Positions 3,636 through 21,690 are shown, numbered from the stretch's first letter. The stretch is 64,000 bases of DNA from Clostridia bacterium (GCA_900767835.1 CAAGAO010000029.1:163-64162), one strand, 5' to 3'. The notes: generated by a model not told the origin, from the sequence alone. Made by a program: numbers and translations.

Positions 3636-3843
3636 TTATTATAACAATATTAACACATAAAATTGTTGATAAAATTTTAAATATTTTGATGTTAATATTG
3701 TATCATATCATAAAAAAACAATCAAACGACTTAGATTTTAAAAAATTATTATAAAATTACCAACAAATTGGATAAATTGAATTGTTATATTAATGACAAG
3801 AAAATACAAGAAATCTTGTTAAATAAATTAAAGGAGAAAAAAT

Positions 3844-4755
3844 ATGCAAAAAACAAAAAAATCAAAGTTCATAGCAATAATTGCAGCAATAACATTGTGT
3901 TTACCACTCGCACTGTTATTGACGGCATGTGGAGGAACAAAAAAACAAGTAAATTCAAAGGAAATGTATGCACTATCAGCTATATCAAGTGCAATTTATC
4001 TACAACAGGAGCAAGAACAAATTAGTGCTGTAAAAAGTATGAAAGCAGTAACCCTTGCACAAACACTAGCAGACAAGCCAGCAAATATTACTGATGAAGA
4101 CCTAGCTGGGACAGAAAGTTGCCTAACTATGTTTGGCGATATTATAAAAAATAATGGGTTTACTCAAGTAGTTGAAAAAAACACAAATCTTTCAGAAGGA
4201 CTAAAAAATTATAACTTTGTTATGACAATTTCCATTCCACACTTATCAAATACAAACACCTATAAACTTTATTATGATGAAATTGATACAGAAACTCAAA
4301 TCGAAATTGAAGATGAGGAACCCGAAACTGAAATTTCGACTACATTAGAAGGCGTTTTAATTGCTAATGAAACCCATTTCAAAGTTGAAGGCAAAAAAAC
4401 AATTGAAACCGAAGGCAATAATACAGAGTATTCAATTGAGTTCAAAACTTACTTTGATGAAAACAATTATGTTGTTGTTGAACAAAGTTCAGAAAATAAT
4501 GAACTTGAATATGAATACGAAATCTACAAAAACGGAGTAAAAGTTCAAAAAATTGAAATTGAATTTGAAAAAGAAAACGATAAAACTGAACTTGAATTTG
4601 AGCTTGTAAACATAAATTCTGGTATTAAAGAAAAAACTACTTACAAAATTAAGTCAGCAGATAATGAACTTTTTGAAATTTCTTTAAATAAAAACGGCGA
4701 AATACAAACGTTCCAAGCAAAAATTGTTGAAGGAAAAATAAATTTCATATTCTAA
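3844..4755 (+). CDS. Lipoprotein, paralogue of the anti-sigma extracytoplasmic domain
   Basis: AAAGGAGAAAAAAT-ATG ribosome-binding site. Signal peptide with lipobox LLLTAC|G. Blocks NYNFVMTI / LEGVLIANETHFKVEGKKTIETEG / ELEYEYEIYKNG align with NYQFVMNI / IDGILLKGNEKYLVEGLHKIETEKG / EQEFIYSLYNDG of ORF 1999..3099. Confidence 0.75.
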   Translation: MQKTKKSKFIAIIAAITLCLPLALLLTACGGTKKQVNSKEMYALSAISSAIYLQQEQEQISAVKSMKAVTLAQTLADKPANITDEDLAGTESCLTMFGDIIKNNGFTQVVEKNTNLSEGLKNYNFVMTISIPHLSNTNTYKLYYDEIDTETQIEIEDEEPETEISTTLEGVLIANETHFKVEGKKTIETEGNNTEYSIEFKTYFDENNYVVVEQSSENNELEYEYEIYKNGVKVQKIEIEFEKENDKTELEFELVNINSGIKEKTTYKIKSADNELFEISLNKNGEIQTFQAKIVEGKINFIF

Positions 4756-4798
4756 AACTAATACATTTTTAATAAAATTTTATAATTTTTATTATAAC

Positions 4799-4830
4799 AA
4801 AAGTCGAGATGAACTCTCGACTTTTATTAT
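4799..4830 (+). terminator. Rho-independent terminator of the lipoprotein gene
   Basis: Perfect 9-bp stem AAGTCGAGA/TCTCGACTT with a 5-nt loop, followed by TTTTATT. Confidence 0.7.
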
Positions 4831-5087
4831 TTAAAAAACAAGTCAATCTACATATTGTGCATTCTCTAGTTTTTATTTTCTCTTTTTATCATTATTTTCC
4901 AAGCATGACTTGTCCCCTTAATTATTTTAAAACTCTCCTTTCTTTATTTTTCTGTATGATTATTTTTTTTGCATAAATAGCATAGGGTTCAGAGCCTTAT
5001 TAAAAAGGTTAATTGTTTTGGTAAGATTTGAAATGCCTAAGATTACCGACTTAAAAACTTAATAAATTAGCCTATTTTTATAGATAT

Positions 5088-5124
5088 GCTACTGTGGCTC
5101 AGCGGTAGAGCACTGCCTTGGTAA
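5088..5124 (+). other. Orphan 5' half of a tRNA-Thr(GGU) (acceptor through anticodon loop)
   Basis: GCTACTG-TG-GCTC-AGCGGTA-GAGC-A-CTGCC-TTGGTAA, then non-tRNA sequence. Its acceptor and anticodon-stem strands are perfectly complementary to the 3' half at 5225..5262. Confidence 0.7.
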
Positions 5125-5187
5125 AACAAAAACAGCACTTTTTCACTACTCAAAATCACCGCAAAAATCGTTCAAAAACAGCACTAT

Positions 5188-5262
5188 GCTGGTGTGGCTC
5201 AGCGGTAGAGCACCACCTTGGTAAGGCAGGGGTCACGGGTCCGATTCCCGTCAGTAGCTCCA
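5188..5262 (+). tRNA. tRNA-Thr (anticodon GGU), 75 nt with encoded CCA; chimeric stems
   Basis: Manual cloverleaf with anticodon loop TTGGTAA. The acceptor has one G.G mismatch and one G.U pair. The anticodon stem CCACC/GGCAG has 2 mismatches. The T-loop is TCCGATT, i.e. C at position 55. Confidence 0.65.
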
Positions 5263-5268
5263 CTTATT

Positions 5269-5317
5269 AAAAATCGCTAAAATCCTTTATTTCCCTAGGG
5301 TTTTGGCGATTTTTTAT
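5269..5317 (+). terminator. Hairpin/terminator after the tRNA
   Basis: AAAATCGCTAAAATCC...GGTTTTGGCGATTTT followed by a T-run. Analogous hairpins follow the tRNA fragments at 19202 and 25924. Confidence 0.55.
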
Positions 5318-5355
5318 TCTTATTTTTTAACGAAATTTTTAAAGCGAAAAAACAT

Positions 5356-5490
5356 TTGCTGTCAATTTTTGGTGCAATTGCTGTCAATATTTGCTCCATA
5401 AAAAAGACCGATAGTCAAAAAATCAACTATCGGTCTAATTCTTTCGTAAACTCTCTAAAACTGGTACATTTGCTGTCAATTGCTGTCAAA
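5356..5490 (+). repeat. Four direct copies of TTGCTGTCAA(T/A) (candidate integrase arm-type sites)
   Basis: Copies at 5356-5366, 5378-5388, 5470-5480 and 5480-5490. They lie between the tRNA and the integrase 3' end. Confidence 0.55.
5400..5435 (-). terminator. Terminator of the integrase gene
   Basis: GACCGATAGT...ACTATCGGTC 10-bp stem followed by a T-run on the minus strand. Confidence 0.55.
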
Positions 5491-5494
5491 TTAT

Positions 5495-6862
5495 TTACAT
5501 CTCAAAATCTTTTTCTTTTCTTCTGCGTTTGCGTTCTTGCAATTTTTCAAGTTCATGAATTTGGCGTTCTATTTCTTCATCAGATAAATCATCATCAATT
5601 TCTTGTTCAACTTCTCGCTCTTGTTCGTGCTCTTGAATTTTTGTGTTTAATCTATCAGTCGCTTCTCTTACATATTCGCTATTGACTGAGTTGTAAACAG
5701 TGATTGTGGTTTTCACATCACGGTGTCCTAAAAGTTGTTGAATTACTTTTGGATTTTCATTCATTTCAAAAAGCATATTTGAAAATGTATGGCGAAGCCC
5801 GTGAAAGTGAATGTGATATTTACTTAAACCATTTCTTCGTTTAAACCTATCAAATATAACTCTTGTGCCATAATAAGTCCTATAACTTCCATTATCATTA
5901 GCAAACACAAAAGATGTTGGTGCGGTTAAAATTGCTGTTACATTTGGATTAGTTTCTTGCCTTTTACTTTGCTTTTCTTTCCATTGTTTTAAGGTCTCTA
6001 GGACAATATCCGTAACAGGTATGTCTCTAACACTGCAAGCAGTTTTCGTGTCACCAATAACCGTTGTGCGGTCTTTAACATTGCCTTGTTCATCAAACTT
6101 TAAAGTTTGTGTAATTGCTCGTTCTATTTTTATTGTTTTATTTGCAAAGTCAATGTTTTTCCATTTAAGCGCCAAAGCTTCACCAATACGAAGCCCAGCA
6201 AACATAAGAGTAATACAAAGCGGTTTAATAAAATTCGCTTCATCTTTATTCAAAGCATCTATAAATTTATCTCTTATTTCAGGTGGCAAGGCTTTGTATC
6301 TTTCATCACCATCTTCTTCATAAACATTTCTTTTACCTTTAACTTTTACTTTCAAAGTTGGATTAATATATATCCATTTATTTTCAATGGAATACTCAAA
6401 AAATTGATTTAATAAATGTTTACACTTCTTTATGGTGTCAACACTGTAACCTTGGTCTAAAAGAATATTTACGAATTTTTGAATTGTATAATTATCAATC
6501 TCATAGACTTTCATTTTGCCGATATGTGGAACAATATGCAACTTGAAGTTTCTAATATTACCTTCAAATGTTCGTGGACTTACAGTGCTTTTTTTGAATG
6601 TCATAAGATATTCAAACATCAATTTTTCAAGGTCGCTATTTTCTACAAGTTCGTAAGAATTACTTTTAACTCTGCCACTTATTTCAGATAATTTTTTAGC
6701 AACTTCGGCTTGTGTTTTTCCATAAATCGTTTTCCTAATAATCTTGCCGTTTTCATCATAGCCCATTGTTAAGGCTCCGCCCCAACGACCATCGCTTCTT
6801 TGGAATATTGAGCCTTCGTTGTTGGCTCTGCGAGTTTTACTTACAACTTTCTTTCTAGCCAT
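5495..6862 (-). CDS. int: Tyrosine site-specific recombinase (phage-type integrase)
   Basis: 455 aa. Catalytic signature AGLRIGEALAL (Arg), HGLRHTF, LLGHRDVKTT and VY (Tyr). SAM-like N-terminal domain. Adjacent to a tRNA gene. Confidence 0.9.
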   Translation of the reverse strand: MARKKVVSKTRRANNEGSIFQRSDGRWGGALTMGYDENGKIIRKTIYGKTQAEVAKKLSEISGRVKSNSYELVENSDLEKLMFEYLMTFKKSTVSPRTFEGNIRNFKLHIVPHIGKMKVYEIDNYTIQKFVNILLDQGYSVDTIKKCKHLLNQFFEYSIENKWIYINPTLKVKVKGKRNVYEEDGDERYKALPPEIRDKFIDALNKDEANFIKPLCITLMFAGLRIGEALALKWKNIDFANKTIKIERAITQTLKFDEQGNVKDRTTVIGDTKTACSVRDIPVTDIVLETLKQWKEKQSKRQETNPNVTAILTAPTSFVFANDNGSYRTYYGTRVIFDRFKRRNGLSKYHIHFHGLRHTFSNMLFEMNENPKVIQQLLGHRDVKTTITVYNSVNSEYVREATDRLNTKIQEHEQEREVEQEIDDDLSDEEIERQIHELEKLQERKRRRKEKDFEM

Positions 6863-8181: not shown

Positions 8182-11100
8182 TTAATTTACCATTAATTTA
8201 CTTGTTTGTTCAATGAATTTTGCTGGTATTTTATTTTTCAATCTCCAAACAAAAGATATAGGCCTTGAGCCTTCATGTGAAACATAATCTGCAAAACCTA
8301 AAATTGAATAGTTCTCTGTCAAGCCAGTTTCATCGTTTCTGTTATTTCTTACGCAAATAAGTATTTTGTTATCAGTTTCTCTATGATGAATATATCTTTG
8401 ACCAACTTTAGATGTAACATCTGTGCCATTTTGAGATTGCCAATGAAATAATTCATCATTAATAGAATAATCTTCATATCTCGTTTCTGGTGAATAATAC
8501 TTTTCTGATTTATTTAATGTAACAAAAAATATATCTGTCTTTTGATTTTCAATATACCAAACTCCGGCCGTTAATGGATAATATGTATCCTCCGTATATA
8601 TTCCATATCCAGCCAAAATTTGAGCATTAGAATAACTAGAATATAATTCTAATGGATTTTTACCATCTAACACTAATGGTGAATTTGTAATATCAATTTT
8701 TGAATAATTAAATTTTAATAATTCCAAAATTTCATCGTAATAGTCAGTGTTGATCAGACTATAAATACTTTCAAGCACATTGTTAAAACCAAGAGATTTT
8801 GGTGATTTTTGAGCTTCATAAGTATAATGAAGCATTAATAAACATCGTTTATCATACTCAGTAATATCTGCAAGAGATTTGTTTTTAATTTTAGGTAATA
8901 AATATAATAGTTTTTTTATCCATGCTGTTGAATTTATTTGGGTAGCTCTCGCTAAAAAGTTTATAATTTTGTCATTATCTTTCAAATCTTTATTTTGTAA
9001 GCTTGTAAAAGAAATGCCCATTTTATATAGTTTGGCAGGGTTTAAGTTGTAATAGTTGAAAAAATTCGCATAACTAACAGGCAATCCACTATCATTTTCA
9101 AAATTATCATATTTTTCAATAATATTGTTTTTATTGTTAAAAGATTGTCGTATGTTGTTAAGGACATAATCTTTTGCTTTCTTTTCTAACGTTATAAAAC
9201 AACCTTTAGGCAGGTTCGGAAACCCCATTTTAATTTCTGTTGAAATTGAACCAGCATTTACACCAAGCAAAGCTTGATATTTATCTGCATATCGATACTT
9301 CTTATTTGCTTGTCCAACATAATCCAAAACTGTTAAACAGTCTTTGCCATCTGATAGTCTCAGACCTCTACCAAGTTGTTGTAAAAATACAGTTAAACTA
9401 TCTGTTGGGCGTAAAAACAAAACGGTATTAACTTCCGGAATATCAATTCCTTCATTATACAAATCAACTACAAAAATAAATTTTATATCGCCATTAATCA
9501 ATTTATTTTTCGCTGTAGCTCTATCTTCTTCGGAACTATCAGAGTTCAGAGAGAGTGATGGAATATTGCAATCATTGAAAATTTTAGCCATATAATCAGC
9601 ATGATTCTTACTTACGCAAAAACCTAAAGCCTTTACATCATCAATATTGTTAAGATATTTATCTAAGGATTGAACAATCATGGAAGCCCTAGTTTTATTG
9701 AAAGATAAAACATTATCAAGTTCTTTTAAATCGTAGCCACCTCTAGTCCATTTAACATCACTTAAATCAGTATCATCTGAAATACCAAAATAAGAAAACG
9801 GAACAAGTAAATTTCTATCAATTGATTCTGGCAATCTAATTTCTGCTGAAATTTTTCCATTAAAATATTTTAATATATCTTTACCATCCATTCTTTCAGG
9901 GGTAGCTGTTAATCCTAAAAGAATTTTTGGGTTAAAATGCGATAATAATCTTTGATAAGTATCTGCAGCTGCATGATGAAATTCGTCAACAACAATATAA
10001 TCATAAAAATCTGAAGAAACACTTTCATACAGTTTTTTCGAATTAAAAGTTTGAATTGAAACAAATAAATTATCAAAACTAGGAGGAATTATTCCATCTA
10101 CCATCAAATTTCCAAAATTATGATCCTTTAATACTGATCTAAATTTTTTAATTGATTGTTCAAGTATTTCTTTTCTATGGGCAACAAACAAGAAGTTAAC
10201 TTTTTGATTTTTATGTTCTGCCAAGAAACGGTTAAAATCTAATGCTGAAATTATTGTTTTCCCGGTTCCAGTAGCTGCCACAACTAAATTTTTGTAATTT
10301 CCAAAATTTTCTCTTTCAACTTTTAATTTTTCTAAAACGCGTTCTTGATAAGGATGGGGAATAATGTCTACAACATAAGGATTGTTTTCATTTTTCCTTG
10401 GATATTTTTCTTCATTTAGTGCTTGTCTTAGCTTTAATTGGTCTTTTATTGTAAATGTTTCAAATTCATCATTGTGCCAATATACTTCAAATGTTCCACA
10501 TATTTTATCAAAAACATCTTTCATTTCATGTTCAGTAACTTTCACGTTCCATTCTGTGCCACTTGTTAAAGCCGCACTTGAAATATTTGAAGAACCCACA
10601 TATGCTGTTGAAAAACCAGTTTTTCTTTTAAAAACATAACTTTTTGCATGAAGCCTAGTAAATTTGGTGTTATACGAAATTTTTATTTCAGTATTATTTA
10701 GTTCTGCTAATTTTTCAATTGCTTTAGCATCAGTACTTCCGGTATAAGTAGTTGTAACTATTCTAAGTTTACCGTCATTGTCAGTAAATGTTTTCAAATC
10801 GTCAAACATTCTAACAATACCACTCCATTTTATAAAAGAAACAATAAAGTCTATTTCATCTGAACTTTCAATTTCTTTTTTCAACTCACTTAAAAACTGA
10901 GCATCTGTATTTGCCCCAGTAAAAATAAATGGTTCAGAGATTGAATAGTATGGGCGAGTTGGATATGTTGTTTTAACTGCTGCAATGTTGTTCTTTTTAT
11001 TAACCAATGAATACAATATTTCTCCATTGCTATTAATCTTTTGAGTGTCGTAAAATTTATCATTAGTTTTATCTTCAATCTGAGAGATCAAGTTATTACA

Positions 11101-11298
11101 AAATTCTAATTGTTCTTCTACCGAACAATTAGAATCCTTTAAATCTTTTAGTCCGCTTTCCAAAACAGAAGAAAAATATTTAGATAATATTTGGGGTGCT
11201 TTTTCTTTATCTATTTTGTTTTTTTCAACTTGTATTGATTCTTCATCAATACTGGATAATGCCTTATTAATAATTTGTTCATAAAGCCCAAATTCCAT
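8182..11298 (-). CDS. PLD-family nuclease / SF2 DExH helicase / DUF3427 fusion protein
   Basis: 1038 aa. PLD motif HAKSYVF...VGSSNIS. Helicase motifs AATGTGKT (I), VDEFHH (II), LTATPER (III), QQLGRGLR (VI). A long C-terminal domain has the architecture I recall for DUF3427 proteins. AAGGAG ribosome-binding site; the gene starts 40 nt after the hsdR stop. Confidence 0.8.
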   Translation of the reverse strand: MEFGLYEQIINKALSSIDEESIQVEKNKIDKEKAPQILSKYFSSVLESGLKDLKDSNCSVEEQLEFCNNLISQIEDKTNDKFYDTQKINSNGEILYSLVNKKNNIAAVKTTYPTRPYYSISEPFIFTGANTDAQFLSELKKEIESSDEIDFIVSFIKWSGIVRMFDDLKTFTDNDGKLRIVTTTYTGSTDAKAIEKLAELNNTEIKISYNTKFTRLHAKSYVFKRKTGFSTAYVGSSNISSAALTSGTEWNVKVTEHEMKDVFDKICGTFEVYWHNDEFETFTIKDQLKLRQALNEEKYPRKNENNPYVVDIIPHPYQERVLEKLKVERENFGNYKNLVVAATGTGKTIISALDFNRFLAEHKNQKVNFLFVAHRKEILEQSIKKFRSVLKDHNFGNLMVDGIIPPSFDNLFVSIQTFNSKKLYESVSSDFYDYIVVDEFHHAAADTYQRLLSHFNPKILLGLTATPERMDGKDILKYFNGKISAEIRLPESIDRNLLVPFSYFGISDDTDLSDVKWTRGGYDLKELDNVLSFNKTRASMIVQSLDKYLNNIDDVKALGFCVSKNHADYMAKIFNDCNIPSLSLNSDSSEEDRATAKNKLINGDIKFIFVVDLYNEGIDIPEVNTVLFLRPTDSLTVFLQQLGRGLRLSDGKDCLTVLDYVGQANKKYRYADKYQALLGVNAGSISTEIKMGFPNLPKGCFITLEKKAKDYVLNNIRQSFNNKNNIIEKYDNFENDSGLPVSYANFFNYYNLNPAKLYKMGISFTSLQNKDLKDNDKIINFLARATQINSTAWIKKLLYLLPKIKNKSLADITEYDKRCLLMLHYTYEAQKSPKSLGFNNVLESIYSLINTDYYDEILELLKFNYSKIDITNSPLVLDGKNPLELYSSYSNAQILAGYGIYTEDTYYPLTAGVWYIENQKTDIFFVTLNKSEKYYSPETRYEDYSINDELFHWQSQNGTDVTSKVGQRYIHHRETDNKILICVRNNRNDETGLTENYSILGFADYVSHEGSRPISFVWRLKNKIPAKFIEQTSKLMVN

Positions 11299-11338: not shown

Positions 11339-14320
11339 TTAATTATTTCTTAAATCTTTATATATTTCGCTCATAAAAATTCCCATAACTTCTTTTTTCA
11401 TATCTGGATTATTTAAAAGAAGAGAGAAGAAATCTTGATTTTGTGATAAGCCTTCTATTAAGGCATCATCAACATCGTCAAAATATGAAAATTCAAAATC
11501 TTTTTGTGTATTATTTTTTGCGCTTTCTTTTAATTTTGATGATTTCATAAGCAAATCTTTTATTTGAAGCATTGCCTTTATTGCGACATCATTATCATAA
11601 CTTCTACCTGTTCTATTATTTATTTCTGCAATTATTTCAGAAAGATGTTTAACTTTGTCTTCCGTCAAATTAAATGTCTCCGCTGTAGGCAATTTAACGA
11701 TAGGGTCAGATGTCAATGTTTCCTTTTTATGTTCATCTTCTTTCTTTTGTATAAAATTAGAAGCCTTAATTTTACCGGTCAAATCAAAACCCCCACCAGG
11801 ATTTTTTATATTAACAAAAGATAGTAAATAAGTTAAGAATAAGTATTTCTTATGCAGGTCAACATCTTCAAAACATGATACCTGAATAAGGAATTCATAA
11901 AATCTTACAAAATGCCTTATTACAGCCACTATTTCAATTTGCTTTAACAATTCAAACTGGTGCAATTTTTGCTCAGCTCTTTGCAAATAAAATGTAAGTT
12001 GTTTTTTATCGCGAACATCGATGTTTTTCTTGTAAATAATATTTGTAGCAACATCAATATCGTATGGATCTAATATCATATAACCATCTAGTTTTGCTTC
12101 TAGCTCATATACAGAACTTGCAGAAACTGAATTTGCAAGTAAGGTTGTAGTATAATAAGGACTAAAAGCATCAACAATTTCATCATAGGTGTTAACAAAA
12201 TCAAGAATAAACGTTTTCTTTTCAAAAGGCGGACAGATGCGGTTTAGCCTAGAAAATGTTTGAACTGCATTTACACCTCTCAATTTTTTAAGAACGTACA
12301 TTGCACATAGTTTTGGCTGATCAAAACCGGTTTGATATTTATTTGCAACAAGCAAAACATTAAATGCTTCGCTATCAAACATTTTTGGCAATTTTTCCTC
12401 AGAAAATCCATTCATATTACTTTCAGTGTATTCTCGTTCATCATCTGGCAGTTTTACTTTTCCAGAGAAAGCAACAAGTGCATGAATATTTGTATATCCT
12501 TTTTTTGTAACATAATCTTCAAATGCTTGTCTATATTTAACAGCACTTGCTCTTGAAGCAGTAACAACCATTGCTTTCGCCATTCCACCAAGTTCATTGA
12601 TTACTGTTGTTCTAAAGTGTTCAACAATAACTTCAACTCTTTGTGCGATATTTGTTTCATGAAGTTCTACAAATCTTGCTATTTGCCTTTTTGCATCTAC
12701 AGTTTTACATCTTGGATCTTCAGATATGTCTTTATTTATTTGATAATAAGTTTTGTATTCAGTAAAGTTTTCCAAAACATCCAAAATAAAGCCTTCTTCA
12801 ATTGCTTGTTTCATCGAATAAAGATGGAAGGCTTCTCTTTGTCCCTTTTTATTAACTCTACCAAACAAGTTTAATGTTGTAGGTTTTGGCGTGGCGGTAA
12901 AAGCAAACATAGAAACATTTGATTGTTTGCCATTTCTTGATATTTCATCAACAATCATATCTTCTGCATCATAAACACCATCATCGCTTACTGTAACATC
13001 ACCAGAGCCTAATGTTTTGGTAATTGCAGCCATATCTTTGCCTGCAGTAGATGAATGTGCCTCATCAATAATAACAGCAAAATGTTTTTTGTTAAGATTT
13101 TTAACCGAATCCACTATGTATGGAAACTTTTGAATTGTTGTTGCAATAATTTTTACATTATTTTCAAGTGCAGACTTTAAATCAGCTGATGAACATTTAT
13201 CATCCATTACTTTTATAACGCCAGACTTGTGTTCCATTCCTATAATTGCGGCTTGCAATTGCCTGTCAACAATAACACGATCCGTACAAATAATTATGTT
13301 GTCAAATATGATTTTGTTTTCATTGTCATGCAAAGATGTTAATCTGTGTGCAAGCCATGCTATTGAATTTGTTTTTCCAGAGCCAGCACTGTGTTGGATA
13401 AGATAATTTTGACTTGTTTTATTGGTTTGGAGGTCAGCTAAAGTTTTTCTAATTACATCTAATTGATGATATCTTGGGAATATCAAATTTTCTTTAACTT
13501 TTGTTTTTCCTGTCACTTCATCTGTTTCTTCTTTATGTTCAACAAAAATAAAATCATTAATAAGGCTAAGAATAGTATCTTTGGTTAAAATATCATCCCA
13601 CATATAATGTACGGAATATTTATCTTGAAAAACAGGATTTCCTTTGCCGGCGTTAATACCTTCGCCATTTCCCATATTGAAAGGCAAGAAGAATGTACTT
13701 TCTCCATTTAATTTAGTAGTCATATAAACTTCTTGCAAGTCCATAGCAAAATTAACAAGACATCCTGCCTTAAATAAGAATAATCTGTTTTTAGCATTCC
13801 TTTGAGTTCTATATTGATATATTGCATCTCCATATGATTGTCCTGAAAAATTACATTTCAATTCAAAAGACATTATAGCAAAACCATTTAAGAATATTAC
13901 AACATCAATTCTTTCTTCATCACTAATCCAAACTTCTTCCATTACAGAAAAGATATTTTTTTCGTACTTTTTAATGAGTTCTGTATTAAAACTTGTTGCT
14001 GGTTTTGTATACATTAAATCTAGGTGATAGTTTGATATTTCAACGCCATGCTTCAAAACATATATTAGCCCTTTTTTAGGATTGGTTATTTCTGCATTAA
14101 TATAATTTACAATGGTTTCTGCTGTAGCATCTTTGTAAATTTTTATTAAAGCAGCCATTTCATTAGGTTGAGTGGAGTTCAAAAATTCAAACAGCATTTC
14201 TTTATCCATTGCAAAAAGACGGTCATATTTAACATTTTCTCTAATTCTATAACCATTTTGTTTCTTTAAAATATCTAATATAAATTTTTGATATTCTTTT
14301 TCGGTTAAAATGTTATTCAT
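11339..14320 (-). CDS. hsdR: Type I restriction enzyme R subunit
   Basis: 993 aa. Motifs SAGSGKTNS (I), IIDEAHSS (II), FTATP (III), QTFSRLNR (VI). Lies in an operon with hsdM/hsdS. Confidence 0.9.
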   Translation of the reverse strand: MNNILTEKEYQKFILDILKKQNGYRIRENVKYDRLFAMDKEMLFEFLNSTQPNEMAALIKIYKDATAETIVNYINAEITNPKKGLIYVLKHGVEISNYHLDLMYTKPATSFNTELIKKYEKNIFSVMEEVWISDEERIDVVIFLNGFAIMSFELKCNFSGQSYGDAIYQYRTQRNAKNRLFLFKAGCLVNFAMDLQEVYMTTKLNGESTFFLPFNMGNGEGINAGKGNPVFQDKYSVHYMWDDILTKDTILSLINDFIFVEHKEETDEVTGKTKVKENLIFPRYHQLDVIRKTLADLQTNKTSQNYLIQHSAGSGKTNSIAWLAHRLTSLHDNENKIIFDNIIICTDRVIVDRQLQAAIIGMEHKSGVIKVMDDKCSSADLKSALENNVKIIATTIQKFPYIVDSVKNLNKKHFAVIIDEAHSSTAGKDMAAITKTLGSGDVTVSDDGVYDAEDMIVDEISRNGKQSNVSMFAFTATPKPTTLNLFGRVNKKGQREAFHLYSMKQAIEEGFILDVLENFTEYKTYYQINKDISEDPRCKTVDAKRQIARFVELHETNIAQRVEVIVEHFRTTVINELGGMAKAMVVTASRASAVKYRQAFEDYVTKKGYTNIHALVAFSGKVKLPDDEREYTESNMNGFSEEKLPKMFDSEAFNVLLVANKYQTGFDQPKLCAMYVLKKLRGVNAVQTFSRLNRICPPFEKKTFILDFVNTYDEIVDAFSPYYTTTLLANSVSASSVYELEAKLDGYMILDPYDIDVATNIIYKKNIDVRDKKQLTFYLQRAEQKLHQFELLKQIEIVAVIRHFVRFYEFLIQVSCFEDVDLHKKYLFLTYLLSFVNIKNPGGGFDLTGKIKASNFIQKKEDEHKKETLTSDPIVKLPTAETFNLTEDKVKHLSEIIAEINNRTGRSYDNDVAIKAMLQIKDLLMKSSKLKESAKNNTQKDFEFSYFDDVDDALIEGLSQNQDFFSLLLNNPDMKKEVMGIFMSEIYKDLRNN

Positions 14321-15203
14321 GTTTTTCTCCCTTAAAATATTCTAATTCTCTTGGCAACTCAATACGCGTATTTTCAAATTCTTCACATAAATTTTCCGAA
14401 TGCATATCAAACGCATAATAATTGTTTAACACATCGCGTCCAACAATAGTAATATTTTTCAAAATTTGAATTTCTTTATCATAATAGCTTATTTGCAACT
14501 GTATTTTACCATCTTTTTCCAAAACAACATTTTTTAATGAATAATATGTATTATGAATTATAATGTCTGTTACAAATATAATTGATTTGCTAATATTATG
14601 TAAATATAATACAAATGACTGACATTTAAAATCATCTTGTTTATTAATATCAATAAATTCAATTTTTACATTTTGATCTAATCTATAACTTTTTAAATAG
14701 TTTTTCAAATAAGGTTTTACTTTATTTTTTTCTTCCTCTTTTCTATCTTTATCAGATTTCCTTATAGTCCATGCAACGCCAACAAGGGTGAGTAGCCCAC
14801 CATAAACTGCTGAAACAATCGGTATAACTACTTGTTGCAAGCTTTCATTTGGGATAATGTATATTAAATAAATAGTTAAAGCAACTCCCACAATAAAATC
14901 TTGAATTAAACCAAATTTTAATTGTGAATCTCCATTTATAAAGGCTTTAGATAAATTATAGAATATGATAACCATTATCAACCCACTAAGGATAAATTTC
15001 CATGTTAGATTATTGATAATAAATGTCATATAAAAACAATCACAAAGCCAATAGAATAAACATAAAATGGCAAATCTTTGATTAACTATTTTATTTTGTT
15101 CTTCAGTTGGGTTAATTCTTTTTGCCACAAAATTTTTAATTGCATATAAGCCAACTGGCACCATTAAAATTATCAATCCAAATATTAACCATTGCCACCA
15201 CAT
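14313..15203 (-). CDS. Uncharacterised membrane protein (5 predicted TM helices + ~130-aa soluble C-terminal domain) embedded in the Type I R-M operon
   Basis: 296 aa. TAAGGAGG ribosome-binding site 8 nt upstream of the ATG. 8-nt overlap with the hsdR start. I recognise no family motif. Confidence 0.75.
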   Translation of the reverse strand: MWWQWLIFGLIILMVPVGLYAIKNFVAKRINPTEEQNKIVNQRFAILCLFYWLCDCFYMTFIINNLTWKFILSGLIMVIIFYNLSKAFINGDSQLKFGLIQDFIVGVALTIYLIYIIPNESLQQVVIPIVSAVYGGLLTLVGVAWTIRKSDKDRKEEEKNKVKPYLKNYLKSYRLDQNVKIEFIDINKQDDFKCQSFVLYLHNISKSIIFVTDIIIHNTYYSLKNVVLEKDGKIQLQISYYDKEIQILKNITIVGRDVLNNYYAFDMHSENLCEEFENTRIELPRELEYFKGEKHE

Positions 15204-15215
15204 AAAATTTCCTCC

Positions 15216-16366
15216 TTAAGCGTTTTTAACTTCTTTTTTCCCGGTAACATATTCATAGATTAAAGATTTTTTATACTCTTCAATTATCTCTACTTGTTCT
15301 TTTTTATTTTTGATAATCTCATCAATTCAGCACATTTATTGTCTAAATAATTTGCAATCTCTTTTTGCTCTTGGATTGGTGGTCTAGGTATTAATATATT
15401 TTTCATATCTTGCCAATTTGTTGTCCACAAATCATCAACAATTCCGTGTCCCCATTTATAAAACTCATCAGCAAATTTTACTGTGTGAAAAAGCCAATTA
15501 TAGTATCTTGCATTCATGTTTGTAAGGGGACATAAAACTGTATTAATTAAAGAAACTGATCCTTCTGTAAAAGCGATACCACACGAGCCACGCCTATCAG
15601 ATCTGCTATTGATAACAAAATCCCCTTTACAAACTAATCTCCTATCATCGTGTGCGTCTGATTTTGCTACGCATTCTAACTGCTGTACTACTCCCTGCAT
15701 TGTAACAGATAAAGGTGGATAATCACGGTCATTAACTTTTGAATTTCTTAATTTATATATTGCAGCAATTCTTGATACAACCCAATGTCTTGGAATTTTA
15801 CCAAACCATTGTCTTACGTTGCAATTATAATCAGCGGTTGAATTTAATCCTTTTGTTACAGCTTCAGTAATAACCGATTTCTTATAGTTTTCTAGTATAT
15901 CTATTTGTTCTTGCAAATCTTTTGTTATACCATCGATTTCCGCACATGTTTCATCTAAAAAATTTGCTATTGTCTTTTGTCTGTATAAATTGTTTGGAAG
16001 ATAAATTTTTCTATTTCCATATTCAGAAAAGTAAATGTGAGGTATAGTTGTTTTATCTATAGATTCATTTAAATTCAATGACATGATACAATACTTTAAC
16101 CAATGTATATCTATATTCTTTTTAGGTATAATATAGGACATTGTTCCAATCAATGAAGAATTTTTTGGATAAATTGTAATTCTTCCAACTCCAGCCCCAT
16201 CTTTAACGATTCCAAGATATTCTTTATTCATAGATTTAAATTTATAGAATCCTAATAAACCGCTTGCTCCAAATATTTTAAAATAATTGTCATTATCACT
16301 AATATATTCTGTTGATATATTTGAATTAAATGAATAACAAACATATTTTAATTTTGATTTTTTCAT
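15216..16366 (-). CDS. hsdS: Type I R-M specificity subunit, apparent 1-nt frameshift near the 3' end
   Basis: Two target-recognition domains. The central conserved helix is FLDETCAEIDGITKDLQEQIDILENYKKSVITEAVTKG. The ORF stops at 15290 (CAELMRLSKIKKNK*). The canonical C-terminal repeat IDEIIKNKKEQVEIIEEYKKSLIYEYVTGKKEVKNA* continues in another frame down to 15216. AGGTGG ribosome-binding site before the ATG at 16366. Confidence 0.8.
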
Positions 16367-16376
16367 TCTGTACCAC

Positions 16377-18482
16377 CTAAAACAACCCATTAATTTTCTC
16401 GCGAACTTGTTTTTCTAATTCTTGAAATTTAGCAAGCAATTCTTCACTTGGAGTTGGTTCTTTATATTCATAAAAATATCTTGTGAAAGGAATTTCTGCA
16501 CCAATTTTTATTGTCTTTTCACCGTTATCTTCATCCCAAGTTGCAGTTTCACTTTTGCCCTCAAAAAATGCTTTTGCATCTGGAATATGTGGTAAAACTT
16601 CGCGTGCCATATATGTATTGATATCTTCTTCAAATTCCACAATTTCTGTGTCTTTTGATTCTTTATCATAGATAATATTACCTTTTTTATCTTTATGAAT
16701 TTCAGCCTTTTTATCCATCTCGGATAAACCATCAATAACTTTATTTATTATTTTATTATCAAAATTCTTTAATACATTTGTTATAACCGGTTCAAAATCA
16801 GATAATTTATAATATATTTTCTCATTTAAATTAGCTTTAAGTGTTTCTAAAATTTTATCGTATATAGGTTTATTTTTATAAAACTCTTCTAGTTTTTTCT
16901 TTTCTTTATCTGTCAATGGCTCTAATTTGTTCTCAAATTCAAATACTTTTCCTTCGTCATAAATAAATGATAAAGAACCTTTTGTAAGCATTTGTTCAAT
17001 TCGCTCTTCAGTTATTGCATAACTTCTTTGTAGAGGTTGCATAACGGTATATTCTTTATATAAAAACTCTTCATTTTTATAAATCTTACAATATTTGTTT
17101 TCTACAAAATCTGCATATAGATGAGCAATCTTTTTTCTATCTTCTGGTTTTATTTCATTCTTTTTATTGCCAGCTGCTTTACGAAGTTTATGATATATTT
17201 CTGCCGCATTAATAAGTTGAATTTTACCTTTTCTTTCTGACCTTTTATTTTTTGATAAAATCCACACATAGGTTTGAATTCCGGTATTATAGAAAAGATC
17301 GGTAGGAAGGGCGATAATTGCTTCAATTAAATCGCTTTCAATCATCCATCTTCTAATTTGACTTTCTCCAGAAGCTGTGTTACCAGTGAAAAGTGGTGAA
17401 CCATTTGCTATAATAGCTGCACGTCCAAGTTTATCATCCATTTTGTTTATTGCGGACTGCATAAAAATAAGTTGAGAATCTCCACCACTAGGAAGGCCGT
17501 GTCCCCAGCGACCATTTTCACCTTTAAGAGCTTCATCACGAACGGCTTTTTCCTGACCTTCTTTTGCATCTTTTCCGGACCAAGTAGTACCAAATGGAGG
17601 ATTTTCTATTACAAAACGCATTTTTATATCTTTAAAACAATCTGTTTTAAATGTATCTACATGTTTAAAGTTTTCTGCATCTTGTCCTTTAATAAGCATT
17701 TCCGCAAGTCCAACGGCATATGATTGGCCCATAAACTCTTGACCAAACAACTTCACATCCGCTGTTGGGTTATAGTGTTTAATATAATTGTAAGCAGTAG
17801 ATAGCATGCCCCCAGTCCCACAAGCTTGGTCACAAACTGTAATAACTTTTCTATTGTCAAATATATCATCACAGCCTTCAGCCATAAGTATTTCTACAAG
17901 CATTTTAATAATATCTCTGCCTGTATAAAACTGTCCGGCATCAACATTTTGATAAAACTTACCAATAAGGTGTTCAAAAATGTATCCCATTTTTATGCTA
18001 TCGTATGTTTTGATACTTAAATCCAAATCAGAGAACGCTTCAACAACTGTATATAAACAGCCGTCCTTATCCATTTTGTCAATATGTTTATTTATCTCAA
18101 GTTCAGTAAAGATATCTTGAACGTTAGTAGAAAAACCATTTATGTAATTTTTAAAATTATCTGCAATATGATTAGGGTCATTACAAAGTTCTTTTAAACT
18201 ATATTCACTTGTATTATAGAATTGAAATCCCGATATTCTATACAACGCTTTGGCTGGAAATGATGGATTTTGTTTATATGCTTTTATAACTTTTCCTTTT
18301 GTAGATTCTAATGCGCATTCCAATCTTCTAAGAATTGTCATAGGAATAACAACATCTCCGTATTTATCTGGCATATATGATCCACGCAATTTATTTGCAA
18401 TAGACCAAATAAAGTTGGCTTCTTGTGTTACATCAATTGGATTCTCATCCCACATTGTATCTAAAATTTTATTATCTGTCAT
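16377..18482 (-). CDS. hsdM: Type I R-M N6-adenine DNA methyltransferase subunit
   Basis: 701 aa. HsdM N-terminal domain, AdoMet motif DQACGTGGML and catalytic motif NPPFG. AAGGAG ribosome-binding site. Confidence 0.9.
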   Translation of the reverse strand: MTDNKILDTMWDENPIDVTQEANFIWSIANKLRGSYMPDKYGDVVIPMTILRRLECALESTKGKVIKAYKQNPSFPAKALYRISGFQFYNTSEYSLKELCNDPNHIADNFKNYINGFSTNVQDIFTELEINKHIDKMDKDGCLYTVVEAFSDLDLSIKTYDSIKMGYIFEHLIGKFYQNVDAGQFYTGRDIIKMLVEILMAEGCDDIFDNRKVITVCDQACGTGGMLSTAYNYIKHYNPTADVKLFGQEFMGQSYAVGLAEMLIKGQDAENFKHVDTFKTDCFKDIKMRFVIENPPFGTTWSGKDAKEGQEKAVRDEALKGENGRWGHGLPSGGDSQLIFMQSAINKMDDKLGRAAIIANGSPLFTGNTASGESQIRRWMIESDLIEAIIALPTDLFYNTGIQTYVWILSKNKRSERKGKIQLINAAEIYHKLRKAAGNKKNEIKPEDRKKIAHLYADFVENKYCKIYKNEEFLYKEYTVMQPLQRSYAITEERIEQMLTKGSLSFIYDEGKVFEFENKLEPLTDKEKKKLEEFYKNKPIYDKILETLKANLNEKIYYKLSDFEPVITNVLKNFDNKIINKVIDGLSEMDKKAEIHKDKKGNIIYDKESKDTEIVEFEEDINTYMAREVLPHIPDAKAFFEGKSETATWDEDNGEKTIKIGAEIPFTRYFYEYKEPTPSEELLAKFQELEKQVREKINGLF

Positions 18483-18486
18483 AAAT

Positions 18487-18792
18487 TTACTCCTTGTTGT
18501 TCCTTATTTTCTCTATCCATTCCGGGGCGTTAATGATTGTTTCTTTAATATCTAATGGTATGTCTTCCACAACTTTTGCAGCCAAATCAAATAATTTATT
18601 TCGCTGTTCTTTATTTAATTTCAAACATTCTGCTATATCGTTAAGTCGTTTATAGTTTTGCGGTGGCTTTGTATTGCCTTGTTCAATATCCCACAAGTAA
18701 GGTTTAGAACAACCACAAAAATTAGCAAGTTGCTGCAAACTTACCTGACCTCTACATTTATTCAAATATTTACCAAAGTCGTTATTTTTCAT
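18487..18792 (-). CDS. XRE-family HTH transcriptional regulator (controller-like) heading the R-M operon
   Basis: HTH segment VSLQQLANFCGCSKPYLWDIEQG. GGAGA ribosome-binding site before the internal ATG (MKNNDFGKYL). The stop lies 4 nt before the hsdM start. Confidence 0.7.
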   Translation of the reverse strand: MKNNDFGKYLNKCRGQVSLQQLANFCGCSKPYLWDIEQGNTKPPQNYKRLNDIAECLKLNKEQRNKLFDLAAKVVEDIPLDIKETIINAPEWIEKIRNNKE

Positions 18793-18802
18793 TATTTTCT
18801 CC

Positions 18803-18828
18803 GTAAATACGTTAGTTAACATATTTAC
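18803..18828. promoter_or_regulatory. Inverted repeat GTAAATA-N12-TATTTAC (candidate operator / C-box)
   Basis: Sits immediately upstream of the ribosome-binding site of the HTH gene. The centre contains GTTAAC. Confidence 0.4.
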
Positions 18829-19159
18829 ATAATAACACATTTAAAACTTAAATACAAATGATTTTTATTAAATATAATATAAATCAACAATTTAAAAAAT
18901 CAAATCTTTACCATTTAATTAATATAGCAGCATCAAATTATTAAATTGCAAAATTAAAGATTGTTTACGAGAATAAAAGTCCACAAAGTTCTATGTTGTT
19001 TTAAAGCGTTTAGGAAGGAAAAGAGTGGCTGGAAATGTGTGTTTAATAGTACATAGGGTTTGGAAAATTGTGTACCTAAATAAAAAATACTAGCGAAAGT
19101 GCTAGTATTCATGGATGATTTTGGGGTGTGGGCACAAGTTTGGAGCAAAGGTTAATGTG

Positions 19160-19295: not shown

Positions 19296-19314
19296 TTAGG
19301 TACATTTAGGTACA
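19296..19314 (+). repeat. Two direct TTAGGTACA copies, 10-nt phase (an inverted copy lies at 19071..19079)
   Basis: CATTAGGTACATTTAGGTACAC abuts the RT stop codon. It occupies the same relative position as the TTGCTGTCAA repeats of module 1. Confidence 0.5.
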
Positions 19315-20865
19315 CGAAATCTCGTGTTGATCCATATAAAAGCTATCATAAAAATTTATATTGTTTTTTGCAAATATTTGATAAATTTTTGTTAGTTTTA
19401 TTTTATTTAATTTTATTTTCTTGTTTATTCTTAAATCTAATTTACTAATAGTATATATTAACAACCAATTTTTTGAAAGCATTGAAGAATCCTTAATCTT
19501 GTCAGATATTAAAGATAATTCTTTATCATATTTTTCTGCAACTTCTTTTAAATTAATAAAACCAGCATTTTTATAATTATTTTCTAAATAATCTAAACAC
19601 ATAATAATTGCTAAATCATTATCACTTTTTAATATGCTTTTAATATTTTCCTCAACAATAGTTACACCGGCTTTAAGGATTATATAAAGCAACCATAAAA
19701 CTTCATGGTCGTGATTTGCAGATAATTCTTTACCCAATATTTTATTCATTTGTTTATGAAATTTTTCTGGTTTTATATAAGGTAAATATAATTCAATCAC
19801 ATTCACCACATACGGAGACAATAAAGGAAACGTTATCATTGTATTTATTAGTAATCCGTAAATTTGTGGTAAATAACTGCCTGGCAAATTTTTACCATTT
19901 AATACCTTTAACAAATACTTCAACGCTCCAACATTCCCATCCGAAGCCAATGAATAAGCTTTTTGTAAAAGCATGTAAACATTTTCACCATCATCAGATA
20001 ACTGAAATAAGTCATCAAAGTTTTCAAGTACATCAAATGGGAATTTTGAAATTTGTATTTTTTCCTTATTTATTAATAAATTATATTCGCTTAATATTGC
20101 GGCTATCTTTGGTATAGCATTATTTGCATCTTCTTGTGTTGAAAAATAAAAGTTATAATCATCAACATATCTAACAAAATCATAATCTTTTTTTAAAATT
20201 TTGTCTAATTCACTTAAAACTATTTCTGAAGTAACTTTTGAAGTAAACGGACCTGTTAATATTCCATTAGTTTGTCTTACATTCATATTTGAATTTAACG
20301 TATCAATTTTATCTCCAATATTATATTCTTCAGACTTCATACTTTTATTGTTGTACATATTTTTTGCATATTCTTTTCCAACACAAGCCCATGCTATAGA
20401 ATGAGTATAGATGCTATTAAAGCAATTTGCGATATCTATTTTTAATTTATATTTATAGCCTACAAAGCGTGCATTACGCGAATAAATAGATTGTCTATAG
20501 TTAGATGGATAATCAAAAGTTTTTATATGTGTTATTCTAGACTCACTACACTTAGAATTACATATGGATAATATAAAATCATAATTCATCCCCAAGTAAT
20601 CAGCCAACTCTAAGAATGAAATAATATTAGGGATATATATTTGCCTTCTTAATAAACCTTCTTTACTCATCGAAATTGACAAAGGACAGGTTCCTTTAGG
20701 GGAAGCGTCTATTAATTGCTTTAATTCGTATTTAATACAATCCCATTTTTCACCTAGGCTATTTGTATTAAAACATTTAGGGAAATGCTCACAAAAATAG
20801 CCATTGTTTGTTAAAATGGCTTCAACAAAATTATTTTGAGTTAACTTTCGAAGCGTGCTTTTCAT
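19306..20865 (-). CDS. Reverse transcriptase, Abi/UG (defence-associated, DRT-like) type with helical-repeat C-terminal domain
   Basis: 519 aa. RT motifs KIDIANCFNSIYTHSI, GILTGPFTS, RYVDDYNFYF (YxDD) and LLINKEKI. The C-terminal ~230 aa is alpha-helical and repeat-like. No group II intron maturase/En domain and no retron-like flank. Confidence 0.8.
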   Translation of the reverse strand: MKSTLRKLTQNNFVEAILTNNGYFCEHFPKCFNTNSLGEKWDCIKYELKQLIDASPKGTCPLSISMSKEGLLRRQIYIPNIISFLELADYLGMNYDFILSICNSKCSESRITHIKTFDYPSNYRQSIYSRNARFVGYKYKLKIDIANCFNSIYTHSIAWACVGKEYAKNMYNNKSMKSEEYNIGDKIDTLNSNMNVRQTNGILTGPFTSKVTSEIVLSELDKILKKDYDFVRYVDDYNFYFSTQEDANNAIPKIAAILSEYNLLINKEKIQISKFPFDVLENFDDLFQLSDDGENVYMLLQKAYSLASDGNVGALKYLLKVLNGKNLPGSYLPQIYGLLINTMITFPLLSPYVVNVIELYLPYIKPEKFHKQMNKILGKELSANHDHEVLWLLYIILKAGVTIVEENIKSILKSDNDLAIIMCLDYLENNYKNAGFINLKEVAEKYDKELSLISDKIKDSSMLSKNWLLIYTISKLDLRINKKIKLNKIKLTKIYQIFAKNNINFYDSFYMDQHEISCT

Positions 20866-20918: not shown

Positions 20919-21690
20919 TTACATTTCCATATCACTTTCTCGTCTGCGTTTACGTTCTTTGCGTTCTTCGAGAAGCTTTGTGAGAATTTCATCAAACTCG
21001 TCATCATCCATATCTGCAACAAACTCATTTTTGCGTTGTTCAAGAATTTCCTCTCGCTTTTTATCGTTTAAAAGCATTTGGCCTTCTTTAACTCTTTCGT
21101 TAAACTTGTCAGTTGTCTGGCGGATATATTCGCTATCAACAGAATTATAGACCGTGATTGTTGTTTTAACATCACGGTGGCCTAAAAGTTGTTGAATAAC
21201 CTTTGGGTTCTCATTCATTTCAAAAAGCATATTTGAGAATGTATGGCGAAGCCCGTGGAAGTGAATATTACATTTGGTTAATTGATGTCGGTCTTTTCCA
21301 GCCATCAAAATGTTTTCTACAGCCATAATATGTTCTAACACTTCCATCATCATTAGAGAAAATATAGGCCGTATTTGCCGTCAAATCGGCAGTAACTCTT
21401 GGATTGGATTTCTGTATTTCCTTTTGCTTTTCTCACCATTCTTTAAGCGTTTCAATAATTATATCAGCAATAGGAATTTCTCTCACACTACATGCCGTTT
21501 TTGTGTCTCCAACAACTGTTAAACGACTTGTTACATTGCCTTCATTATCAAACTTTGGTATTGTTGTTATTGCTCGTTCTACTTTTAATGTTTTAGTTTC
21601 AAAATTTACATTTTACCATTTCAGTGCAAGCGTTTCACCAATACGAAGCCCACCAAACATTAAACAAACACAAAAAAGATATCATTCCTA
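20919..21690 (-). pseudogene. Tyrosine integrase pseudogene (paralogue of int 5495..6862)
   Basis: The C-terminal 144 aa is intact and nearly identical in the block HFHGLRHTFSNMLFEMNENPKVIQQLLGHRDVKTTITVYNSV. Upstream there is one frameshift after ...RTYYG and two in-frame stops (KW*, EW*). Homology ends at about 21690, so about 215 N-terminal codons are missing. Confidence 0.8.

Follow-up and report, generated by a model that had tools for sequence, protein, structure and literature searches.

A five-helix membrane protein with an exchangeable cytoplasmic domain, a candidate defence gene of restriction operons in gut Firmicutes

The accessory genes so far known from restriction operons include PrrC, RloC, and RonA. 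PrrC (from the EcoprrI locus) and RloC, both anticodon nucleases, occupy the slot between hsdS and hsdR, are co-transcribed with the restriction genes, and plausibly provide back-up immunity; PrrC is a soluble protein in which an N-terminal ABC-ATPase domain is joined to a C-terminal RNase domain. RonA, from the Ronin system (Silas et al., bioRxiv 10.1101/2023.04.06.535777), is a 61-residue protein with a single transmembrane (TM) helix, encoded at a locus without hsdR; it is toxic alone, suppressed by HsdMS, and triggered by Ocr, ArdA, or Aop1. Here we describe a gene, termed gene X, in 64,000 nucleotides (nt) of DNA from a Clostridia bacterium (GCA_900767835.1, CAAGAO010000029.1:163-64162; hereafter the window, in whose coordinates positions are given unless a locus is named). 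Gene X lies in the hsdS-hsdR slot of a Type I restriction-modification (R-M) operon, encodes a protein with five TM helices, and is a good candidate for a new anti-phage gene that is not tied to the Type I enzyme.

We gathered 119 loci around X homologues, called their open reading frames (ORFs), and labelled the neighbours by means of profiles for which genes with Pfam annotation served as seeds; when X was collapsed at 95% identity there were 76 clusters, 74 of them with some flanking sequence. The PrrC/RloC slot is occupied by X in the window (hsdM-hsdS-X-hsdR) and, in the form hsdS-(0-1 small ORF)-X-hsdR, in 31 of the 74 non-redundant loci; five more are truncated by contig ends but compatible (36/74). 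In most of the other loci X comes straight after restriction genes of Type II, IIG, III, or IV or after abortive infection (Abi)-type genes. Homologues are thus enriched between hsdS and hsdR or in defence islands, a pattern that the first-pass annotation of the window had proposed to look for. Our preferred reading, held tentatively and at somewhat less than an even chance, is that gene X is a mobile single-gene defence cassette, residing in or at the 3' end of restriction operons, whose product is a membrane sensor-effector.

Gene X has the position of PrrC and RloC and nothing else in common with them. Its product is a five-TM protein with an immunoglobulin-like (Ig-like) domain, in which neither Pfam and NCBIfam searches nor the structural model revealed an ABC/P-loop or anticodon-nuclease domain; moreover, X is not confined to Type I loci and does not co-evolve with the Hsd proteins. 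The resemblance to Ronin is that both systems tightly link a membrane-inserted putative effector to hsdS and hsdM. As RonA is described, X is set apart from it by its 296 residues, five TM helices, variable cytoplasmic domain, and the presence of hsdR, and also by its distribution, since the X family occurs in gut Firmicutes and stands beside Type II, III, and IV systems as well. The first-pass annotation had regarded a membrane effector obeying PrrC-like logic as undescribed. This is out of date; Ronin is the published version of that arrangement, so that coupling of a membrane effector to Type I subunits is an existing concept. The novelty lies in the X family itself, its unmatched five-TM fold, its swappable cytoplasmic domain, its spread in gut Firmicutes, and its promiscuity across restriction types.

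Gene X occupies 14313..15203 on the minus strand, a strand that the first-pass annotation had left out when it placed a 296-residue ORF between hsdS and hsdR. The ribosome-binding site of X, TAAGGAGG (15211..15218, minus), is separated from the ATG by a 7-nt spacer and contains the TAA (15216-15218) that served as the ancestral hsdS stop codon. This overlap had been proposed at first pass and is correct: the intact hsdS of a close relative (L001) terminates at exactly the same TAA. At the other end, the X stop codon (14313-14315) and the hsdR ATG (14318-14320) give an 8-nt overlap, ATGAATAA, and the hsdR ribosome-binding site GGGAGA (14326-14331) falls within the conserved 3' tail of X (14313..14332, minus), which encodes ..GEKHE followed by the stop codon. 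Both features were confirmed from the sequence as they had been reported. A promoter scan, uninformative in DNA this rich in AT, returned 102 sites against about 70 expected.

An AlphaFold2 model of protein X, built on an 89-sequence alignment (mean pLDDT 82, pTM 0.50), has helices at residues 2-30, 34-63, 66-90, 93-116, and 120-162, followed by a beta-sandwich at residues 166-287, and so upholds the five TM helices and beta-rich C-terminal domain predicted at first pass. The model, the loop charges, and conservation delimit a conserved five-helix TM domain (residues 1-147; 14763..15203, minus) with its N-terminus outside, and DNA identity breakpoints against a second close relative (L059) delimit a hypervariable cytoplasmic beta-sandwich cassette (approximately residues 165-290; 14333..14712, minus). 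The orientation follows from the charge pattern in 323 family members: loop 1 has on average 5.05 and loop 3 2.45 K plus R residues, whereas the averages for loops 2 and 4 are 0.16 and 0.56, and the region past TM5 is strongly charged, which together put the N-terminus outside and the beta-sandwich in the cytoplasm.

The TM domain is highly conserved among these 323 members. W5 (99%), D55 (92%), Y58 (94%), D102 (92%, plus 7% E), and Y112 (98%) stand out, as do G135 (98%), T139 (97%), T146 (98%), and the invariant G136, L140, and G142 in the TM5 region, whose signature motif is YGGLxTLVGVAWT; cytoplasmic loop 1 is fairly conserved (T33 67%, Q36 70%). According to the model, the conserved acidic residues D55 and D102 would be buried in the TM domain, D55 at about the middle of TM2 and D102 within that third of TM4 which is nearest the cytoplasm, both placements being estimates. 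The two buried Asp residues had raised the idea of an intramembrane aspartyl protease, which was dropped because there is neither a GxGD motif nor a structural match. Protein X also has no P-loop and no nuclease motif.

Although the first-pass annotation called the protein an orphan, it belongs to a sizeable family: a search of 90% clusters gave 463 homologues at E<=1e-3, and at 50% identity the family comprises 471 clusters. The source names of the homologues are without exception absent or 'hypothetical protein', and all 41 of 41 genome loci with X come from gut metagenome-assembled genomes of Clostridia, Christensenellaceae, Bacilli, or Acholeplasmatales. The earlier statement that X has no recognisable family motif stands: no Pfam, NCBIfam, or PADLOC family matched it, and none matched the 89 aligned members consistently, PADLOC giving scattered matches in one or two members at E=1.8e-4 or weaker. 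In particular, the window protein had no match to the PADLOC membrane effectors (CBASS 2TM/4TM, Cap15-like, RexB, AbiZ, Csx28). A sequence-profile search of the PDB was empty; Foldseek against the PDB found nothing for the TM domain and, for the C-domain, generic Ig-like (PapD/MSP/ASH) matches, all at E>0.01. A literature search with signature peptides of the family returned nothing. Some homologues have N-terminal extensions; the idea that these long forms represent fusions to a small upstream ORF ('alpha', described below) was rejected, as the extensions gave no hidden Markov model matches and consist of extra TM helices.

Two viral connections bear on the possibility that X is an injection-blocking or superinfection-exclusion protein, which would hinder phage genome delivery at the membrane while its variable domain binds ejected phage proteins. 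The top BFVD match (A0A8S5R7G4, E=2e-8) is an uncharacterised gut-virome protein of similar overall predicted architecture, and a search of PHROGs gave one weak match, in the C-domain (E=9e-4), to a family of unknown function. Exclusion proteins are typically polytopic in the membrane and have a fast-evolving domain, as X does. However, the variable domain of X is predicted to be cytoplasmic and not surface-exposed, and neither tblastn of cultured phages and plasmids nor a scan of IMG/VR found an X homologue. Exclusion is the explanation to which we give the least credence, and we consider it very improbable.

The partners of X are almost all restriction systems, and they are diverse. X overlaps the last methyltransferase gene in three loci that have C5-methyltransferases and an HNH nuclease (L003, L045, L058); it also partners GmrSD with a C5-methyltransferase, an ICEA nuclease with an N6_N4 methyltransferase (L031), a Type IIG enzyme (L033), and a Type III Res protein (L102). 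In three further loci X begins 9 nt after a PLD-helicase gene and is followed by an AbiTii-like gene (L014, L093, L105), in two it stands beside a helicase of the SLFN type, which may or may not have an SRA domain (L002, L054), and in four the order is HsdR-(YgjP)-X (L020, L089, L104, L027). X overlaps a T5orf172 gene in L042 and L107; additional neighbours are RES, DndB-like, and DUF3800 genes as well as Abi_2 and AAA_21. There is no adjacent R-M gene at L042, L034, and L011, the last of which has the sole housekeeping neighbour of X, PEP synthase. Pfam tallies of the immediate neighbours agree with a restriction/defence context. The gene upstream of X is co-directional in 65 of 71 loci (median gap 9 nt) and the gene downstream in 63 of 68 (median gap 1 nt). 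No transporter or permease family reached threshold, and the neighbours, PEP synthase at L011 excepted, are restriction or defence genes. Neither of the two observations named at first pass as refuting a defence role, mostly non-defence contexts or a match to a housekeeping transporter or permease, was thus made.

The proximity of a membrane protein to the helicase-nucleases of several restriction types invites comparison with Kiwa KwaA and Zorya ZorAB, in which a polytopic membrane component is likewise found next to DNA-targeting effectors. X could analogously be a membrane sentinel that detects phage DNA as it enters and, at the site of entry, recruits or activates the restriction nuclease encoded next to it; its cytoplasmic domain would be free to contact protein or DNA, and the buried conserved Asp residues might recall those of ion-coupled membrane sensors. 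Unlike the Kiwa and Zorya components, X has no fixed partner protein, and it has no homology to them: its sequence and profile resemble neither KwaA nor any PADLOC membrane component. Remote homology to KwaA (PF28043) was considered and rejected, given that there is no Pfam match, that hhalign against a KwaA gave a probability of 0.2%, and that no KwaB adjoins X. Since X also fails to co-evolve with the nuclease, and the type of its C-domain is not partner-specific, a sentinel of this kind seems decidedly unlikely.

The C-domain behaves as an exchangeable cassette. Where two family members match at 90% identity or more in the TM domain, BLAST detects no C-domain similarity in 39% of pairs; the window protein and P0011, for example, are 97.5% identical in the N-domain, with C-domain similarity undetectable. 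In pairs for which an alignment of both domains is possible, divergence is greater in the C-domain in 90% of cases. The reverse also occurs (window versus P0007: N-domain 78%, C-domain 92%), so that the mosaicism runs both ways. A DNA comparison of the window with L059 shows 96.6-97.2% identity across the regulator and hsdM at one end and across hsdR and the PLD-helicase gene at the other, and 94% identity from the centre of hsdS to about X codon 164. Identity is lost at two places only, target-recognition domain 1 of HsdS (16372-15970) and the X C-domain (14712-14333). L001 has the same X as the window together with two different HsdS target-recognition domains.

Cassette exchange would be served by conserved flanks. 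The unrelated C-domains of P0011, P0024, and P0058 end in the same ..GEKHE tail and stop codon, which carries the hsdR ribosome-binding site and start, so that flanks for homologous exchange are in place; this tail, the fixed -8 junction, and the conserved 3' end of hsdS look like the fixed recombination flanks of a cassette slot. All C-domains are nevertheless joined by single-linkage similarity and have N203 and D257 in common, and so represent one very divergent fold rather than unrelated domains. The arrangement resembles the shuffling of HsdS target-recognition domains, in that variable cassettes are recombined between conserved flanks within the same operon. It differs in that the variable part of X is an Ig-like fold on a membrane protein and not a DNA-recognition domain, and in that the window contains no silent C-domain cassettes, and no repeats of the invertase type or otherwise suited to phase variation, near X.

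These properties suggest how a sensor-effector of this type might operate. The variable cytoplasmic domain would be the specificity or sensor module, recognising a fast-evolving phage factor, and recognition would switch the conserved TM domain to an ion-conducting or membrane-damaging state, in the simplest form an ion leak leading to abortive infection. The infected cell would thereby be halted, giving a second line of defence behind restriction. Embedding in the operon would provide co-expression and co-transfer, and does not mean that X is physically leashed to the Type I enzyme. In its combination of an N-terminal membrane module with a cytoplasmic beta-rich domain, by which the module might be gated, and in its defence-island location, X is similar to Abi effectors that couple TM helices to a sensor (the TM plus beta-barrel CBASS effectors of the Cap15 type, RexB, PifA). 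It differs from these in having no PADLOC match and no signalling enzyme encoded alongside, and the cassette-type hypervariability of its sensor domain suggests recognition of protein rather than nucleotide. We infer, tentatively and with confidence that falls short of even, that X acts as such an autonomous sensor-effector.

Several points weigh against this interpretation. Toxicity or pore formation is backed by no homology to characterised effectors, and the strong conservation of the TM domain could instead mean contact with a host membrane machine and not a pore. The pTM of the model is just 0.50, which leaves the relative placement of the two predicted domains uncertain. No X homologue, and hence no vehicle of mobility, was found in cultured phages, plasmids, or IMG/VR. 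Finally, the near-exclusive pairing with DNA restriction, and not with defence generally, may point to a functional link with restriction, for which a purely autonomous model has no explanation.

Such a link is central to the main competing explanation, a guard of the PrrC/Ronin type, in which the restriction complex (e.g., HsdMS) silences X and phage anti-restriction attack frees a membrane toxin. A guard would account for the occurrence of X in the PrrC slot in roughly half of the loci, for its translational packing with hsdS and hsdR, and for the restriction systems that make up almost all of its partners; the fairly conserved cytoplasmic loop 1 could serve as a docking site, and Ronin, in which HsdMS silences a TM effector that Ocr and ArdA trigger, is a precedent. 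The evolutionary record of X is difficult to reconcile with it. Pairwise identities of HsdR and HsdM are tightly correlated in 26 hsdS-X-hsdR loci (Spearman 0.90), whereas in the same loci those of the X TM domain correlate weakly with HsdR (rho 0.24) and not with HsdM (0.10). Individual pairs make the same point: L036 and L097 have HsdR proteins that are 94.6% identical and X N-domains that are just 40.6% identical, while L024 and L097 have X proteins that are 88% identical and HsdR proteins that are 48% identical. The evolutionary history of X is independent of those of HsdR and HsdM.

The C-domain is equally independent of the partner. With C-types defined at >=40% identity, type 0 is found with Type I genes, PLD-helicase, T5orf172, and the HsdR-X arrangement; type 13 with PLD-helicase, C5-methyltransferase, and PEP synthase; and type 1 with Type I genes, C5-methyltransferase, and SLFN, while the Type I slot alone contains at least 15 C-types. 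C-domains thus recur across different partners and vary within operons that are otherwise 97% identical. The partners have no fold in common that could be guarded, and L042, L034, and L011 have no adjacent R-M gene at all.

The slot itself proved to be variable. The HsdR family is far larger than the X family, with at least 7,994 matches at E<1e-100, and we compared slot contents in three sampled relatives of the window HsdR (L122, L125, L128). In L122 (HsdR 85% identical) the slot holds X. In L125 (75%) it holds only an unrelated 172-residue 'beta' ORF with an Rx4H motif, and no X. In L128 (75%) it holds, at 3778-6008 of that locus, a 273-residue multi-TM protein and a 463-residue divergent X relative (E=5.5e-24), which shares with X only the TM5 motif (GGGLTLVGVAWTI) and the C-terminal beta-sandwich, its TM region being different and longer; the family is accordingly broader than the five-TM form. 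In all three loci the gene before hsdR abuts or overlaps the hsdR start, and L125 and L128 keep the 8-nt overlap. The -8 overlap, being retained with X, with the unrelated 172-residue ORF, and with a divergent X-like gene, is a property of the slot and not of X. The description of X as hard-wired into the operon, given at first pass, was therefore misleading; it fits the slot, whose varied contents mark it as a recombination hotspot. Other small genes found in these operons are the 'alpha' and 'beta' ORFs, AbiJ-like genes, and a KAP NTPase.

A related Type I operon without X in its slot is a further difficulty for a guard. Of the guarded membrane effector proposed at first pass, the defence context is retained, and the Type I guard is not favoured in view of the diverse partners, the lack of co-divergence, the partner-independent C-domain, and the X-less relative; we consider a guard unlikely. 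A slot that takes unrelated genes also raises the possibility that X is not an immune gene but a hitchhiker, such as an addiction or stabilisation module or an envelope function, at a recombination-prone hsdS/hsdR junction. The immune role of X is indeed putative, and at one locus X follows a housekeeping PEP synthase gene. As the association with restriction and Abi genes is far above chance, and cassette-type hypervariability is typical of conflict genes, we regard hitchhiking as improbable. As a candidate defence gene X is well supported and evolutionarily unusual, although its function is wholly inferred.

In hsdS of the window (15216-15340, minus), loss of 1 nt near 15326 (GAAATT to GAATT) brings the stop codon 77 nt forward; the ancestral frame runs on to 15216. 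The deletion costs approximately 31 terminal residues of the conserved C-terminal helix, which are intact in L001 (a 95-98% identical relative), where hsdS encodes 435 residues ending in ...EYKKSLIYEYVTGKKEVKNA before the stop codon. Two independent metagenome samples (L120, L121) also have this deletion, whereas L001 and L059 lack it, which makes it a mutation of the lineage and not an error of assembly. As a separate observation, codon 73 of X (14985-14987) encodes Ser in the window, where 98% of the 323 family members have Gly. The close relatives P0001-P0008 all have Gly at this codon, and G73S occurs only in the lineage with the hsdS frameshift. Together, the two changes could reflect joint decay or a compensatory attenuation. 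That the sole lineage with a truncated hsdS carries G73S would fit an attenuated toxin freed from its leash, and to that extent a guard, but this is a single anecdote.

A more far-reaching version of the preferred interpretation can also be entertained, although we consider it doubtful. X would then be the founding member of a restriction-coupled membrane immune module, in which a conserved five-TM switch (buried Asp55 and Asp102) that conducts or senses ions is joined to a cassette-exchangeable Ig-like domain that captures fast-evolving phage proteins, and which would provide a common membrane-based back-up or entry-site sentinel for restriction systems of Types I, II, IIG, III, and IV. The captured proteins would be, for example, anti-restriction or early proteins. 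To our knowledge, no partnership between restriction and a membrane sensor that spans all restriction types has been described.

If X is an immune gene, it would add a new, structurally unmatched membrane family to the known restriction-operon accessory genes. The family is abundant in uncultured Clostridia of the human and animal gut, in which defence systems are poorly charted. Swapping of the X C-domain next to HsdS domain swapping in the same operon is a natural experiment for mapping recognition, and the hsdS/hsdR junction of this Type I lineage, as a recombination slot for several unrelated small genes, should be useful for defence-gene mining.

The remainder of the operon in the window is a Type I system with HsdM, HsdS, and HsdR on one strand, hsdS being frameshifted at its 3' end. 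All genes are on the minus strand. At the head is a helix-turn-helix regulator gene (18487..18840; HTH_31 match), which is kept in the same position in L001, L059, L120, and L122. It is followed by the methyltransferase gene hsdM (16377..18482; HsdM_N and N6_Mtase, PADLOC MTase_I E=3.7e-226), the 3'-truncated hsdS (15290..16390; Methylase_S, PADLOC Specificity_I), gene X, and the restriction subunit gene hsdR (11339..14320; HSDR_N, ResIII, SWI2_SNF2, and T1R_D3-like domains, PADLOC REase_I). The last gene (8182..11298) begins 40 nt past hsdR with no terminator between and encodes a Type IV-like PLD-nuclease/helicase/DUF3427 protein, identified by its Pfam domains and by PADLOC mREase_IV (E=1.8e-211). 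Terminator-like sites occur on this strand only at 19110-19085 and at 8179-8150, the latter directly after the PLD-helicase gene; with no such site between 19085 and 8179, the six genes look like a single transcription unit. Proteins of the same type as the last one (PLD-nuclease, superfamily 2 helicase, and DUF3427) are encoded directly upstream of X in L014, L093, and L105.

Immediately upstream of the R-M operon is a gene for a 519-residue reverse transcriptase (19306-20865, minus), which PADLOC matches best to RT_UG30 (E=3.2e-114) and next to Drt6, Drt4, and AbiK-like models. The island thus contains a second defence gene. Beyond it, a 144-residue ORF (20919-21353, minus) has a tyrosine-recombinase C-terminal motif (HGLRHTF...LLGH) and, judged from this motif, looks like an integrase fragment at the border of the defence island.

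Small genes recur in and around the X loci. The 'alpha' ORF, of 104-128 residues with a coiled coil and a C-terminal TM anchor, lies directly upstream of X in five loci (L005:9674-9988, L024:9470-9826, L035:5411-5797, L037:9253-9609, L109:2721-3077), and may be a partner of X; no Type I genes were labelled near it in L035. The 'beta' ORF encodes a soluble protein of 172-187 residues (L009:1898-2425, L013:9276-9836, L057:7425-7988, L094:1342-1896, L097:531-1085, L125:5490-6008) with the motif LTLPDICGK...YNLRCSLLH(E/Q)GNP, in which the Rx4H element is HEPN-like, and has no Pfam or PADLOC match. It occupies the hsdS-hsdR slot either with X or, in L125, alone. Insertions between hsdM and hsdS also occur in these Type I operons and consist of AbiJ-like genes or a gene for a KAP-family NTPase (L053:5976-6749, L062, L065, L066, L098; L010:7397-8755; L128:1166-2524); in some, SIR2 or GmrSD genes have been fused on after hsdR.

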